DNA from: an uncultured Chloroflexia bacterium | Lineage (GTDB): Bacteria; Chloroflexota; Limnocylindria; Limnocylindrales; CSP1-4 | Assembly: GCA_963789865.1 (NCBI GenBank) | Contig: CAWBMD010000005.1 | Span: 15,465 to 79,464 of the forward strand | Reading direction: 5' to 3' | DNA length: 64,000 nucleotides | The notes under the pieces: generated by a model | Told to the model about the DNA's origin: nothing | What the model saw: only the letters and a program-made list of their open reading frames with translations | Databases searched by the model: none | In this document: positions 6,457 to 12,427 of the stretch, in pieces | Layout of the letters: every line of letters begins with the position of its first letter | How positions within the stretch are numbered: the first letter of the stretch is position 1 | Program-made: the position numbers and the translations under genes

Positions 6457-7461
6457 TCAGGCGACGGCGACGGGGCGTTCCACGGCGGCGTCCGGTCGGA
6501 GCCTGCGGTCGATGAGGACCCTCACCACGTACGTGATCTCGAGGTCCGCACCGTCGAACGAGGGGGCCGTGTCGAGCGGCAGCGCCAGCGAGACCCCGCC
6601 GTTCCCCGCCCGGAGCTCGTCCGAGGTCGTTGCCTCCACCGCGATGATGCCCTCGGCGCCGTTGGGCGCGTTCGTCCGCCGGTGCAGCTCGATGCGGGCC
6701 GGACCGCCCGGGGCGCCGGGCCACGCGGCACGGACGCCGATCGCTGATCCCGGCGAGGCCGGCAGGGGCGTCGTCACAGAGATGCTCGCCCCGTCGACAT
6801 CGACGGTGTCCAGCATCGCCGTCCCTCCCTGCCTGCCGACGCCGGCGCGGATCAGGTCCGGGTGCTGTGCGATGGGCACCAGCACCGCGACGAAGGCGTC
6901 ATCGCCCATGGCCACGTCCCAGCGTGCCTCGAGCGCCCACGCCACGATGGCCTCGCCCAGGTGCGCGCTCGGCGGTCCAAGCGGCGGCGCCGGCACCCGG
7001 AACGTCGTCTCGAACACCTGGCCAGGGGCGAGGGACGCGGGGATCGCCGGGTCCGCGAACGCGTCCTCCACGAAGAGGCGCCCGTTGGCCTCGACCCAGT
7101 TCTCGGTCGTGGTCGTGTTCTCGCCGGTCCTGTGGGTCTCGCTCTTGCGCTCCTCGACCAGGCGGAGACCCACGAGGCGCAGCGCGGCCTTCCTCGCCGA
7201 CACCGCCTCCACCCCGGTCAGGCGCAACGTTCCCTCGATCCCCTCCCCCACCCGCACCGGACCGGCGAGGCGGAATTCACCGGCGATCCTGCCCGACGAC
7301 TGTTTGATGAGGTCCTCGGCGCGGACCCCATGGAGTGGGTGCGAGCCCTCGTAGCCGGCCAGCCGCGTGCCGTTGGCGGCATCGAAGGGTTCGGGGCAGT
7401 GACCCTGGTGCATCGGGAAGCCGAAGGCTCCGCTGCCGCTGCCGAACGAGATCGAGACCAT
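6457..7461 (-). CDS. hypothetical protein; possibly arrestin-like / SpoOM-like fold (weak)
   Basis: 334-aa ORF with coherent composition, first gene of a three-gene minus-strand operon (6457-7461, 5667-6398, 5393-5662). Family assignment is only an impression. Confidence 0.6.
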   Translation of the reverse strand: MVSISFGSGSGAFGFPMHQGHCPEPFDAANGTRLAGYEGSHPLHGVRAEDLIKQSSGRIAGEFRLAGPVRVGEGIEGTLRLTGVEAVSARKAALRLVGLRLVEERKSETHRTGENTTTTENWVEANGRLFVEDAFADPAIPASLAPGQVFETTFRVPAPPLGPPSAHLGEAIVAWALEARWDVAMGDDAFVAVLVPIAQHPDLIRAGVGRQGGTAMLDTVDVDGASISVTTPLPASPGSAIGVRAAWPGAPGGPARIELHRRTNAPNGAEGIIAVEATTSDELRAGNGGVSLALPLDTAPSFDGADLEITYVVRVLIDRRLRPDAAVERPVAVA

Positions 7462-8127: not shown

Positions 8128-8775
8128 CTACCTCCCGGCCATCGCAGGCCCGCCGAAACGCGATGTCCGGAAGGCCCAGACCTCGCTCCCTGGGTCACTC
8201 CATGCGCGCGGCGGGAGTCCGGCTTTCCGACAGCACGTGTCGAGCATCGCGGTGCGGTCCATGCCGTGCACCGTGGCGACCTCGGGGAGGAGGAGGCCGC
8301 GACGCCCGCTGCGCTTGACGACGATGCCGTCCGTTCCCAGCCGGAACGAGAGGGGGTCCTCCAGGCGGAGCAGTGGGCCGAGGATCGAGATCTCGACGTC
8401 GGTCGCCGGCAGCTCCTCCGGGTCCAGGCGCCCGAACCGCGGGTCGTCCCGTGCAGCCCAGCGAGCCGCCTGGACGACGGAATCCCAGGCCGGCGCCTCG
8501 GGATCCATGGCGCCCATGCACCCGCGGAGCTCGCCTCGCTGCTCCAGCGTCACGAACGCGGCCCCGCGGCGCTCCGGCAACGGCCGTCGGCCGAGCTCCT
8601 CCTCAAGTCTCGCGGGGAGACAGGCCCCGGCGGCCACCGCCACCGCGACCCGCGCCAGCTCCAGCAGGCGCTCCTGCTCGGCAGGGTTGACGTCAACCGC
8701 GCGGGGGAGGCGCGCCGAAACGCTGGCGGCCGAACCACCGTGAAGCGACGAGCCGGTGAGATTGGGAGCCCGCAT
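8128..8775 (-). CDS. AMMECR1 domain protein (AmmeMemoRadiSam system protein A)
   Basis: …PAEQERLLELARVAV…RRGAAFVTLEQRGELRGCMGAMDPE…, the conserved AMMECR1 core (GAFVTL…LRGCIG). Transcribed divergently from the radical SAM / Memo pair. Confidence 0.85.
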   Translation of the reverse strand: MRAPNLTGSSLHGGSAASVSARLPRAVDVNPAEQERLLELARVAVAVAAGACLPARLEEELGRRPLPERRGAAFVTLEQRGELRGCMGAMDPEAPAWDSVVQAARWAARDDPRFGRLDPEELPATDVEISILGPLLRLEDPLSFRLGTDGIVVKRSGRRGLLLPEVATVHGMDRTAMLDTCCRKAGLPPRAWSDPGSEVWAFRTSRFGGPAMAGR

Positions 8776-8867
8776 GGCGATCGCGCCTCCAGTGCGCACG
8801 GATCATCGGTCCCACGAACGGCATCCACCAAGGGCGCAACCGCCACAATTCCGGACCGGCCGGCACT

Positions 8868-10007
8868 GTGGAACCCGGGACGATCGAGAGCAGACTGAGA
8901 GCGGAGTCGTCGATGTCACCGCTCGCCCCTTCCCATGTCGGTGCAGTCCCCACCATCCTCGCGACGTCGCAGCCGGATGGGTCGGTTCGCTGTGGCGTCT
9001 GCGCTCACCGCTGCCTCGTCCGGCGGGGACGACACGGCATCTGCGGCGTCCGTGAGAACCGGGACGGGCGGCTGTGGTGCGACGCCTACGGCTTGGTCGC
9101 CGCGGCCGGGGTGGACCCGATCGAGAAGAAGCCGCTGTTCCACGTGGATCCGGGGACGCTCGCGTACTCCATCTCCGCGACTGGATGCCCGTTCCATTGC
9201 ACGTTCTGCCAGAACTGGGAGATCGCGCAGGGGCCGCGTCTCGGGCTCGATATCCCGCTGCGCCCGATGCCGCCCGCGCGCATCGTCGCCGAGGCGAGGA
9301 AGGCAGGAGCCGGCTCCGTGGCGTATACGTACATCGAGCCGACGGTCTTCCTTGAATACGCCCTGGACACGGGACGCCTCGCGCGGGAGGCCGGGCTCCG
9401 GAACCTGTTCATCACGGACGGATACGCCACTCCCGAGGCGGTGGCCCTGCTCGCCGACGTCCTCGATGCAGCGAACGTGGATCTCAAGAGCTTCGACGAC
9501 TCCTTCTACCGCCGGCTGTGCGGTGGCCGTCTCGCGCACGTCCTGGCGGCCATGGTCGCCCTCCGGGTCGCCGGCGTGTGGCTGGAGATCACGACGCTCG
9601 TCATCCCCGGTCACAACGACCGTGACGATGAGCTCGGGGCCCTCACCCGCTGGATCGTCGAGAACCTGGGGGCCGGAACGCCGTGGCACGTGAGCCGGTT
9701 CTTCCCGGCATACCGGATGACGACCGTCCCCGCCACACCGTACGCGACCCTGCAGCGGGCGGCCGACATCGGGCGGGCCGCGGGCCTGCACCACGTCTAC
9801 GTGGGCAACGCCCCGGAGCTCCACCTCGAGGACACGCGCTGTCCCGGGTGCGGCATCCTGCTCGTGGAGCGGCGCGGCTACCGCAGTCGCTCGTTGCTCG
9901 GTGCAGGGGGAGCCTGCCCGGGGTGCGGGCGCCCCGCGGAGGGGCGATGGCCGCCGACCGGCAGTTCCGCCTCGGGTGTGTCGGCCACCCGGGGACTCGG
10001 ACGATGA
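8868..10007 (+). CDS. AmmeMemoRadiSam system radical SAM enzyme (PFL-activase-like)
   Basis: CGVCAHRC…GICG N-terminal Cys cluster, then CPFHCTFCQNWEIAQ (the radical SAM CxxxCxxC motif), GSVAYTYIEP, …DLKSFDD…. Confidence 0.9.
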   Translation: MEPGTIESRLRAESSMSPLAPSHVGAVPTILATSQPDGSVRCGVCAHRCLVRRGRHGICGVRENRDGRLWCDAYGLVAAAGVDPIEKKPLFHVDPGTLAYSISATGCPFHCTFCQNWEIAQGPRLGLDIPLRPMPPARIVAEARKAGAGSVAYTYIEPTVFLEYALDTGRLAREAGLRNLFITDGYATPEAVALLADVLDAANVDLKSFDDSFYRRLCGGRLAHVLAAMVALRVAGVWLEITTLVIPGHNDRDDELGALTRWIVENLGAGTPWHVSRFFPAYRMTTVPATPYATLQRAADIGRAAGLHHVYVGNAPELHLEDTRCPGCGILLVERRGYRSRSLLGAGGACPGCGRPAEGRWPPTGSSASGVSATRGLGR

Positions 10008-10987
10008 CCGGGATCCGCCCACCGGGCGCCGGCCGGGCCCGGTCACTGGTTCGGCCGGCGGCGGTGGCTGGCATGTTCTACCCGGCGCTCCGGGGCGAGC
10101 TCCGGGACCTCGTCGACGGCCTGTTCGCCGCTGCATCACGACTCCCGGACGTGCGGGCGGACACGGCGTCCTCCCGCAGCCTGCCGACAGGCATCCTCGT
10201 CCCTCACGCTGGGCTCGCGTACTCGGGGATCGTGGCGGCCGCCGGGTGGAGCCGACTCCGATCGCGTCGTGACGACGCCCACGACACAGGCGGAGCCCGT
10301 GACGACGTCGACGGGACCGGACCCGTGGGGCCCCTCACCGTCGTCCTGCTCGGGACGAACCACCGGGCTGGCTGGCTCGGCGGCGTGGCCGCATGGGACG
10401 TGGGGGCATGGTCGACGCCCGTTGGCGAGGTCGCCGTGGACGACCCGCTGGCGGCGGCCATCGTGAACCTTGGACCACCGTTCCTCGCGGACCGGAGGGC
10501 GCACGGGGGCGAGCACTCGATCGAGGTCCAGCTGCCGCTCCTCCAGGCGGTTGATCCGTCGGCCCGGATCGTGCCGCTCGCCGTCTCGGCTGGCAACGGC
10601 GCCCGGGCGATCACCGCCGGAGCCCGCCTGGGAGGGTTGCTCGCCGCGCACCGTGCCACGGGGGCGAGGATCGTGCTCGTGATCAGCACGGACATGGCGC
10701 ACTACCCTGCCGCCGGTGACTGCGAGCGCGCGACCGGCGTCCTGCTGCCGCCGATCCTCACCGTGGACCCGCTCGGTCTCGCGCGGCGGGAGGAGGCGCT
10801 GCGGGACGCAGGCATCGCAGGCCTCGCCTGCGGCATGTGCGGGATCGATCCCGCCGTGCTGGGACTCGCGGCGATGCAGGCGTTGGGCGCGACCAGGGGC
10901 GGCATCCTCGCCACCGCAACCTCGGCCGACGCGGGTGGGCCGGCGGACCGGACCGTGGGATACCTCGCAGCCCGGTTCGACGCCTGA
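10004..10987 (+). CDS. MEMO1 family protein (AmmeMemoRadiSam system protein B)
   Basis: ATGA overlap with the radical SAM gene. AGMFYPA…, VPHAGLAYSG, VVLLGTNH, STDMAHYP match Memo-family motifs. Carries a ~25-aa charged insertion (RSRRDDAHDTGGARDDVDGTGPVG). Confidence 0.85.
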   Translation: MTGIRPPGAGRARSLVRPAAVAGMFYPALRGELRDLVDGLFAAASRLPDVRADTASSRSLPTGILVPHAGLAYSGIVAAAGWSRLRSRRDDAHDTGGARDDVDGTGPVGPLTVVLLGTNHRAGWLGGVAAWDVGAWSTPVGEVAVDDPLAAAIVNLGPPFLADRRAHGGEHSIEVQLPLLQAVDPSARIVPLAVSAGNGARAITAGARLGGLLAAHRATGARIVLVISTDMAHYPAAGDCERATGVLLPPILTVDPLGLARREEALRDAGIAGLACGMCGIDPAVLGLAAMQALGATRGGILATATSADAGGPADRTVGYLAARFDA

Positions 10988-11101
10988 GCGCGCCGAGACC
11001 GTCGAGCACATGCCCATCTGGACCTTGACGGGCGAGGCCACGCTGCGATCATCGCGTGGAGACCCCGGCGGGGTCGGGGCCACAGCCGTGAGGAGCGCCC
11101 G

Positions 11102-12427
11102 ATGAACGTCGTCGCCGTCGTCCTCGCCGGGGGTGCCGGTGAACGTCTCTCCGTCCTCTCCGACCACCGCGCCAAGCCGGCCGTCCCGTTCGGCGGCAAG
11201 TACCGGATCATCGACTTCGCCCTGTCGAACTGCGTCAACTCCGGGATCGACCGTGTGCTGGTGCTGACCCAGTACAGCCCCCGCTCGCTCATCGACCACA
11301 TCGGCCAAGGTCGCTCGTGGGATCTCGACCGCTCGTTCGGTGCCGGCATCCGGGTCCTCCAGCCCTATCTCTCCCGGACCGACAAGGTGGGCTGGTATGC
11401 GGGTACCGCTGATGCGGTGCGGCGGAACGCGACGGCGATCGCCGAGGAGCACCCGGACCTCGTGCTCGTCCTCGCGGGCGACCATGTCTACAAGATGGAC
11501 TACCGGCCGTTCATCGAGACGCACCTGGCGAAGCGCGCCGACCTCACGGTGGCCGTGCTCACGGTGCCCCCCGACGAGGCAACCCGGATGGGGATCTGCC
11601 TGACCGACGATGACGACCGGATCGTCGACTGGGAGGAGAAGCCCGCCCGGCCGCGCGGGGACCTCGCATCGATGGGGGTCTACGTCTTCTCGCCCGAGGC
11701 GCTCCGGCGTTGGGTGACACCGACCCGGCATGACTTCGGCAAGGACGTGGTCCCGGCGATGATCAGGGCCGGCCGGCGGGTGTTCGCCCACCGCTTCGAG
11801 GGCTACTGGCGAGACGTGGGCACGGTCGAGGCATTCTGGAAGGCGAACCTGGACCTCGTCGGGCTTGTCCCGCCGCTCGACCTGTTCGACCAGAGCTGGC
11901 TCATCCACACCAGGTCGGAGGAGCGATCACCGGCGAAGAGCGGCCCCGATGCCGTCTTCCGCCACTCGCTCGCCAGCCACGGCTGCATCATCAACGGAAG
12001 CGTCGTCAACAGCGTGCTGTCGCCCGGCGTCAAGGTCTATGACGGCGCCGTCGTCCGGGACTCGGTCATCATGCTGGACGCGGAGATCGGTGCCGGCGCC
12101 GTGGTGAACGGGTCCATCATCGACAAGCACGTGAAGGTCGGCGCGGGTGCGGTGGTCGGCCACGGCGAGGATCGCTGGGTCGTCAACGGGGAGGAGCCGG
12201 ACCGCCTGACAACCGGCATCACCGTGGTCGGAAAGCGTGCGGGGATCCCCGCTGGCGCCCGACTCGGGCGCAACGTCCGGGTGGACGCCGATGTCGTGCC
12301 GGGAGACTTCACGTCACTCGATATTCGCTCGGGCGAGACGGTGCATCACCCGGACGGGACACCGGCGGAGCTGGACGGTCGCCGGGCTCGCTCCGCTTCG
12401 GCCTCCCCGACCCGCAAGACTCGATGA
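11102..12427 (+). CDS. glgC: glucose-1-phosphate adenylyltransferase
   Basis: MNVVAVVLAGGAGERLSVLSDHRAKPAVPFGGKYRIIDFALSNCVNSGI…LVLAGDHVYKMDY…, with a C-terminal left-handed beta-helix region. Confidence 0.9.
   Translation: MNVVAVVLAGGAGERLSVLSDHRAKPAVPFGGKYRIIDFALSNCVNSGIDRVLVLTQYSPRSLIDHIGQGRSWDLDRSFGAGIRVLQPYLSRTDKVGWYAGTADAVRRNATAIAEEHPDLVLVLAGDHVYKMDYRPFIETHLAKRADLTVAVLTVPPDEATRMGICLTDDDDRIVDWEEKPARPRGDLASMGVYVFSPEALRRWVTPTRHDFGKDVVPAMIRAGRRVFAHRFEGYWRDVGTVEAFWKANLDLVGLVPPLDLFDQSWLIHTRSEERSPAKSGPDAVFRHSLASHGCIINGSVVNSVLSPGVKVYDGAVVRDSVIMLDAEIGAGAVVNGSIIDKHVKVGAGAVVGHGEDRWVVNGEEPDRLTTGITVVGKRAGIPAGARLGRNVRVDADVVPGDFTSLDIRSGETVHHPDGTPAELDGRRARSASASPTRKTR

Follow-up and report, generated by a model that had tools for sequence, protein, structure and literature searches.

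Does a three-gene locus on contig CAWBMD010000005.1 of an uncultured Chloroflexia bacterium encode a complete AmmeMemoRadiSam system, and what can it tell us of the role of that system? The locus occupies positions 8128-10987 of the 64,000-nucleotide stretch that we analyzed (hereafter the window, to which all positions refer) and comprises genes for an AMMECR1 protein, a radical S-adenosylmethionine (SAM) enzyme and a Memo-family protein. AMMECR1 and Memo are both found, in conserved form, from archaea to humans. X-linked AMME/developmental phenotypes are associated with AMMECR1, while MEMO1 has been connected with cell motility, metastasis and iron homeostasis. The main lead that genomes offer on their biochemistry is the prokaryotic triad, in which both proteins accompany a radical SAM enzyme.

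An earlier note on this DNA had read the locus as a complete triad and had drawn attention to its divergent gene order, to a 68-bp intergenic region and to an insertion in the Memo protein. Here, we report that the locus is a true but unremarkable instance of a widespread three-gene system, and that the oddities flagged are typical of its lineage. Taken as a whole, an intact AmmeMemoRadiSam locus, a tentatively proposed radical-based mechanism and a tolerated loop in Memo very probably provide the best explanation of what we observed.

The locus encodes an intact AmmeMemoRadiSam module

A profile hidden Markov model search had been set in advance as the test of the triad, and all three products exceeded the curated NCBIfam cut-offs. 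AmrA (AMMECR1) matched TIGR04335 with 135.8 bits (E = 9e-40; cut-off 99 bits), AmrS (radical SAM enzyme) matched TIGR04337 with 331 bits (E = 7e-99; cut-off 220 bits), and AmrB (Memo) matched TIGR04336 with 180.7 bits (E = 3e-53; cut-off 26 bits), the last match being split in two stretches by a variable loop. The three proteins also scored above the Pfam gathering thresholds for AMMECR1 (E = 1e-40), Radical_SAM (PF04055, 79.4 bits) and Memo, respectively. Furthermore, the three genes adjoin one another, which is the co-location that characterizes the system. The locus passes the cut-offs of the reference AmmeMemoRadiSam system (TIGR04335, TIGR04336 and TIGR04337; amrA, amrB and amrS in PGAP), shares its gene adjacency and all of its motifs, and differs from it by the expanded variable loop of the Memo protein.

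The list of open reading frames (ORFs) contains a 223-aa ORF at 8128-8799 on the minus strand, a 379-aa ORF at 8868-10007 on the plus strand and a plus-strand ORF ending at 10987. AMMECR1 is thus encoded divergently from the radical SAM and Memo genes, as the earlier note had described, and the ATGA through which it had coupled the latter two can be read directly in the sequence (Table 1). To place this organization among its relatives, we retrieved 80 genome loci by means of the Memo profile (81 with the window). Wherever all three genes were found, amrA lay on the strand opposite to amrS-amrB (68/68 loci), and a 4-nt A/GTGA overlap joined amrS to amrB in 45 of 76 loci (ATGA in 30, GTGA in 15), the others having gaps of a few bases. 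Conservation of the divergent layout in 68/68 loci and of the overlap in 45/76 indicates that the module is under selection. Our results show that the locus is an intact amrA/amrS-amrB module in which amrS and amrB are translationally coupled. Across the loci compared, the divergent layout is the norm of the clade and not a special feature of this genome.

Other lineages carry the system in a different arrangement. In Ideonella dechloratans and Segatella hominis, Memo and AMMECR1 (TIGR04336 and TIGR04335) are fused in a single protein of 464-491 aa whose gene precedes amrS on the same strand, whereas here amrA is separate, lies on the opposite strand and gives the order amrA <-> amrS-amrB.

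Copy number and completeness of the system also vary. No second copy of the triad was found in the 64-kb window. One metagenome-assembled genome (MAG), MFD05942.bin.1.135, carries two complete triads on different contigs (L067 and L079), and the system can therefore be duplicated. At two other loci (L015, 5230-6924, and L057, 5228-6942), AMMECR1 lies divergently beside Memo and the two are not separated by a radical SAM gene.

Table 1. Features of the amrA/amrS-amrB locus and its control region (window positions).
Feature	Position	Strand	Remarks
amrA (AMMECR1, AmmeMemoRadiSam system protein A)	8128..8775	-	215 aa
amrS (AmmeMemoRadiSam system radical SAM enzyme)	8913..10007	+	364 aa
amrB (Memo family, AmmeMemoRadiSam system protein B)	10004..10987	+	327 aa
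ATGA stop/start overlap of amrS and amrB	10004..10007	+	amrS stop TGA at 10005-10007; amrB start ATG at 10004-10006
Shine-Dalgarno GGAGG of amrA	8786..8790	-	10 nt upstream of ATG 8775; plus-strand CTCC conserved in multi-locus alignment
Shine-Dalgarno GGAG of amrS	8903..8906	+	6 nt upstream of ATG 8913; GGAG or GAG recurs in multi-locus alignment
-10-like GATGAT of putative amrA promoter	8802..8807	-	A8802 and T8806 at least 90% conserved over 32 loci
Central block	8826..8844		TTGGTG (8831 to 8826; -35-like for amrA, 18-nt spacer) and imperfect palindrome GGGCG-N4-CGCC
Bipartite motif GGACCGGCCGGCACTG-N-CAGACT	8852..8896	+	putative -35-like CTGTGG (8866-8871), 19-nt spacer and -10-like CAGACT (8891-8896) for amrS-amrB
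Acidic/Gly-rich stretch of amrB, RSRRDDAHDTGGARDDVDGTGPVG	10259..10330	+	24 residues between HAG..YSG and VVLLGTNH blocks

The host lineage

The G+C content of the window is about 72% and uniform throughout. Almost all of the 80 related loci come from Chloroflexota MAGs; most of these are labelled Limnocylindria/Limnocylindrales or "uncultured Chloroflexia", and a few carry other bin labels. Likewise, the named entries among the 120 best Memo homologues are Chloroflexota or Candidatus Limnocylindrales. The closest locus, L001, encodes a Memo protein 68% identical and a radical SAM protein 83% identical to those of the window. These loci point to Chloroflexota and away from Actinomycetota, which the earlier note had named as the group to survey. 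Judged by its relatives, the host is a high-GC Limnocylindria-type Chloroflexota from soil or freshwater rather than an actinobacterium.

Gene starts and the extent of the intergenic region

Among related loci with a recognizable N-terminal Cys motif, the commonest start candidate of amrS is an ATG located 26 codons ahead of the first Cys. In the window, ATG 8913 occupies exactly this position, while GTG 8868, the first codon of the longer ORF, has no counterpart in relatives. On the other side, ATG 8775, the amrA start, corresponds to a CAT that is conserved in the multi-locus alignment. The same contig, 216,778 bp long, has public gene calls that include the exact 364-aa amrS product, which belongs to a 26-member cluster, and the exact 215-aa amrA product. 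With amrS starting at 8913 and amrA at 8775, the intergenic region therefore spans 8776-8912 (137 bp). The 68-bp region at 8800-8867 proposed in the earlier note has to be abandoned, as it conflicts with the end of AMMECR1 at 8775 and rests on GTG 8868 as the amrS start.

For Memo, the public call P0001 (346 aa) starts at ATG 9947, 58 nt inside amrS (window 9947-10003), at a position that is not conserved among relatives and that lies within conserved radical SAM codons. ATG 10004 is the better predicted start for amrB. Since the A/GTGA overlap is conserved in relatives and the 19-codon extension is not, the comparison suggests that the 346-aa call is 19 codons too long.

AmrA and AmrB retain the signature residues of their families

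Among 54 relatives of AmrA, conservation of the LRGCxG (L84-R85-G86-C87-M-G89) and D112-P113-R114-F115 motifs reaches 90% or more. The RGChG and DxR-aromatic motifs have been predicted to form the active site of AMMECR1, with the Cys pointing into a cleft (Balaji and Aravind 2007, PMC2034487). The archaeal AMMECR1 proteins PH0010 (1VAJ), MM0484 (1ZQ7) and ST0229 (1WSC) matched AmrA at the sequence level (E = 6e-21 to 2e-16) and share its RGCxG and DxRF motifs, whereas AmrA has an additional, poorly conserved N-terminal extension of about 35 residues before the TIGR04335 core.

The AlphaFold model of AmrB has a mean predicted local distance difference test score (pLDDT) of 92.3 and a predicted template modelling score (pTM) of 0.91. 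Its best fold matches in Foldseek were structures of human MEMO1 (7M8H, 7KQ8 and 7L5C, E ~3e-16), followed by LigB-type dioxygenases. AmrB and human MEMO1 (3BCZ; 7KQ8, Fe-bound; 7L5C, Cu-bound) have a common fold, with template modelling (TM) scores of 0.68-0.78, despite only ~20% identity. H68, H120 and C279 of AmrB are invariant in the 120 homologues and align with H49, H81 and C244 of MEMO1, which are Fe/Cu metal ligands (PMC11081632). The two proteins differ in that the MEMO1 loop is short (VDPS-ITRR) where AmrB has 33 residues, and in that eukaryotes have no radical SAM partner.

AmrB also adopts the superfamily fold of the type II (LigB/PCAD) extradiol dioxygenases (1BOU, 3WR8 and 7TXY; Foldseek E = 1e-6 to 1e-4). 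It does not have their 2-His-1-carboxylate (Glu) iron site, as the third ligand position is occupied by Cys279, like C244 of MEMO1. The Memo clade is not known to have dioxygenase activity. By fold and alignment, AmrB is a member of the Memo clade of the PCAD-Memo superfamily with a predicted MEMO1-type metal site.

The Memo insertion lies in a hypervariable loop

The earlier note had reported a charged insertion between the HAG..YSG and VVLLGTNH blocks of AmrB and had asked whether it could be lineage-specific or the product of two compensating indels. The insertion is real, in frame, 24 residues long and located where it had been placed. It is not unique: the loop that contains it (W82-L116) ranges from 12 to 40 residues over the 120 homologues, and the window, with 33 residues, lies in the upper tail together with eight others of equal or greater length. 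In the four closest Memo relatives, which come from JGI and ENA metagenomes and are 79-80% identical, the loop is 34 residues long and, read in the annotated frame, has RS.R...GGA..DV in common with the window.

A compensating-frameshift artefact of assembly or polishing would leave a stretch of foreign reading frame, and codon composition gives some reason to consider it. The G+C content at third codon positions (GC3) drops to 0.71 in the insertion compared to an amrB average of 0.87, whereas an open +1 frame reaches a third-position G+C content of 0.88. These values weigh against a genuine loop, although codon-position G+C alone is equivocal. Comparison with homologues effectively refutes the artefact, to which we give next to no credence. 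Four independent metagenome proteins carry a loop only one residue longer and share frame-0 residues with it, loop length is continuous over the homologue set, the conserved blocks on both sides keep one frame, and an identical protein exists in the public record. The alignment thus resolved the question in favor of a genuine, lineage-typical loop.

In the AmrB model, the insertion is mostly coil, with a pLDDT of 65-68 compared to values above 90 elsewhere, and lies between helix 71-85 and strand 112-118. Because H120 follows the C-terminal end of strand 112-118, the loop would emerge opposite the metal site. The topology of the model indicates that the insertion is probably distal to the metal, and it is probably a tolerated, fast-evolving surface loop with no catalytic role. 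The loop also contains a 23-nt imperfect direct repeat (10268-10290 and 10298-10320, 78% identity) spaced by exactly 30 nt and encoding RDDAHDTG and RDDVDGTG. This repeat hints that the loop grew by in-frame duplication, although two-copy repeats of such size can arise by chance.

AmrS and the chemistry of the system

The CX3CX2C motif of AmrS (C92-PFH-C96-TF-C99) is invariant in 56 relatives, as are the N-terminal cysteines C27, C30, C34 and C44 and residue C203, and the C-terminal cysteines C310, C313, C335 and C338 are 95-96% conserved. Sequence comparison links AmrS to only one group of characterized or solved proteins, the glycyl-radical activases, such as the pyruvate formate-lyase (PFL) activating enzyme 3C8F (E = 8e-7). 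AmrS shares with these enzymes (3C8F; TIGR02493 and TIGR02494) a radical SAM core with CX3CX2C, with homology extending over ~160 residues. Unlike them, it has additional conserved CX2CX3CX9C (N-terminal) and CX2C...CX2C (C-terminal) modules, and no glycyl-radical enzyme partner is encoded at the locus. Furthermore, AmrS falls far below the cut-offs of the activase families (TIGR02494, 43.3 vs 174.35 bits; TIGR02493, 37.5 vs 231.75 bits).

Our preferred mechanism, which we put forward tentatively and with somewhat less than even confidence, would have a radical initiate the modification of a substrate that is either a small molecule or of the RNA base/isoprenoid type. AmrS would bind a [4Fe-4S] cluster on C92, C96 and C99 and cleave SAM, and the resulting 5'-deoxyadenosyl radical would abstract a hydrogen from the substrate. 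AmrA and AmrB would act on the substrate of AmrS as a physically associated pair, in which AmrB would supply a MEMO1-type mononuclear Fe/Cu site (H68, H120 and C279) and the cleft cysteine of AmrA, C87 in RGCxG, would carry or resolve an intermediate. The substrate would most likely be a small molecule or an RNA base/isoprenoid-type metabolite, and less likely either partner protein. Burroughs et al. reportedly proposed, in 2019 and from genome context, a substrate of the small-molecule or RNA base/isoprenoid type. An RNA base modification pathway had also been proposed from genome context (Balaji and Aravind 2007, PMC2034487).

Since AMMECR1 and Memo form a single polypeptide elsewhere, we infer that AmrA and AmrB act as a complex. 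Their joint action is suggested by the Memo-AMMECR1 fusions followed by amrS in Ideonella and Segatella, and by the retention of an AMMECR1-Memo pair without an adjacent amrS in the two Limnocylindria loci L015 and L057.

Several observations weigh against this mechanism. The literature that we searched contains passing mentions only, with no biochemical function reported for any family member, and the gene neighborhood offers no conserved fourth gene from which the substrate might be guessed. In addition, the nearest characterized relatives of AmrS act on proteins, which favors a model where AmrS, like the PFL activase, modifies AmrA or AmrB by installing a protein radical or a post-translational modification, for instance on the Gly or Cys of the RGCxG loop, and thereby matures its partner. 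The match to 3C8F, the hits to TIGR02494, TIGR02493 and other activase models, and the strict co-inheritance of the three genes are all consistent with this activase model, which the earlier note had raised as an enzyme-maturation system. Conversely, AmrS remains far under every activase cut-off (e.g., 43 vs 174 bits), neither AmrA nor AmrB is recognized as a glycyl-radical enzyme family by Pfam or NCBIfam, and the AMMECR1-Memo pairs of L015 and L057 have no adjacent radical SAM gene. Moreover, it is established that AMMECR1 and Memo persist in eukaryotes without a radical SAM partner (PMC2034487, PMC7694686). We therefore regard maturation of a partner protein by AmrS as possible but rather unlikely, and keep the mechanism described above as the preferred model.

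A conserved motif in the divergent control region

When the 150-nt segments preceding amrS in 32 loci were aligned, conserved blocks separated by variable spacers emerged: A..T at 8802/8806, AG.GC at 8831-8835 together with C8844, CC...CGGCACT at 8856-8867, and A.A.T at 8892-8896. In the central block, A8831, G8832 and C8844 are invariant, while G8834 and C8835 are at least 90% conserved. The two rightmost blocks belong to a bipartite motif with the consensus GGCACTG-N21/22-nAGACT. Upstream of amrS, 49 of 77 loci carry a relaxed version of it, GGCAC[TC]N-N(15-26)-A[GCT]A[CT]T, which nearly always spans 34-35 nt in total. The motif occurs once in the 64-kb window, against 0.03 occurrences expected by chance, and a regulon search did not find it elsewhere in the window. 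In its full form, GGACCGGCCGGCACTG-N-CAGACT, it also has operator-like bases upstream of the -35-like element.

We infer that these blocks would fit two divergent promoters with A2/T6-type -10 hexamers and a shared central palindrome or operator. Two points weigh against this assignment: a scan of 8776-8912 for canonical sigma-70 sites returned none, and the promoter assignments stand at the level of consensus. The strand of the amrA -10-like hexamer is ambiguous, as the plus strand reads GATCAT at 8801-8806 over it. The earlier note's expectation of two promoters in the intergenic region is plausible, although the rightward -10-like element at 8891-8896 falls outside the 8800-8867 interval given there. 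A sigma-54 reading of GGCAC was also considered and rejected, as inspection by eye of the 32-locus alignment showed no conserved TTGC 4-5 nt downstream.

The same blocks (8826-8896) could instead form a structured 5' leader RNA of amrS-amrB, i.e., a riboswitch or attenuator transcribed from the GATCAT -10 at 8801-8806. The strong system-specific conservation upstream of amrS is compatible with such a leader, the one sigma-70-like match of the region (upstream of glgC) uses GATCAT as its -10 as well, and a promoter at CAGACT leaves a leader of only ~10 nt. However, tests for RNA structure in the intergenic region were all negative. Rfam gave no match (best E = 0.4, well under gathering), RNAalifold predicted no consensus pairs, the spacer folds no better than shuffled sequences (z = -0.10, p = 0.54), and the whole region has a folding z-score of about -0.3 that is equal on both strands. 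Counting of palindrome pairs revealed no covariation of the GGGCG/CGCCC helix beyond shuffles (75% paired vs 73.4%). Furthermore, a fixed-length, sequence-free spacer between conserved blocks is typical of protein-DNA recognition. A structured RNA was thus rejected, and we consider the leader very improbable.

If the DNA is recognized by a protein, a further, more specific proposal can be made. The control region at 8826-8896, with its GGGCG-N4-CGCC palindrome, CCGGCCGGCACTG, fixed 21-22 nt spacer and nAGACT, may be bound by a dedicated regulator or, less probably, act as a ligand-sensing leader, with the substrate or product of the AmmeMemoRadiSam system as the would-be effector. This candidate remains a long shot. 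The conserved, system-specific intergenic DNA motif is the only new item at this locus and provides a modest lead towards regulation.

No conserved fourth gene accompanies the triad

The earlier note had suggested looking for a conserved fourth partner, and our search, carried out in the Chloroflexota loci, found none within ~6 kb on either side. Neighbors of the triad were compared by tblastn against the 80 loci and flanking ORFs were clustered all-vs-all; beyond the triad and its shadow ORFs, no cluster was present in more than 17 of 81 loci. The commonest one, a generic ABC ATPase (17/81), occurs at varying positions. Glutamine synthetase, a xanthine-dehydrogenase-family Mo enzyme, an MFS transporter and a MerR-LMWPc fusion were each found in at most 12 loci, and the neighbors seen in the window (an SRPBCC-like protein, a GlgC-type nucleotidyltransferase, VanW and ComB) are common only to L001.

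In about ten loci (L053, L055, L059, L062, L074, L080 and others), the xanthine-dehydrogenase-family molybdoenzyme (MoCoBD and FAD/2Fe-2S subunits) lies directly downstream of amrB on the same strand, and in eight other loci a gene for a MerR-low-molecular-weight (LMW) phosphatase fusion is convergent to amrB. Both associations are sub-clade synteny only.

In the window, the GlgC-type nucleotidyltransferase gene (11102-12427) lies between amrB and the VanW-region genes. It is preceded by TTGACG-16-GATCAT at 11025-11052, the only sigma-70-like site of the region. In L001, the VanW-region genes come after Memo with no glgC match between, which suggests that the position of glgC beside amrB results from a local insertion or deletion.

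On the other side of the triad, a 334-aa ORF (6457-7461, minus strand) has a short Pfam Arrestin_N match (29 bits vs a cut-off of 24.9) confined to its last 43 residues. This is an odd annotation for a bacterium, and the ORF is not kept beside the triad in relatives. Neither tRNA genes nor Rfam families at gathering threshold were found in the 64-kb window.

Significance

The locus does not settle the function of the AmmeMemoRadiSam system and would not surprise a specialist. It is a further clean example of the system, from an uncultured class of Chloroflexota in which the split, divergent layout is stable and in which one surface loop of Memo is free to vary between 12 and 40 residues. The motif in the divergent promoter region could serve to fish for a regulator. 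If the control region is indeed the binding site of a dedicated regulator or senses a ligand, this regulator or ligand would provide the first experimental handle on the role of the universally distributed AMMECR1/Memo system.

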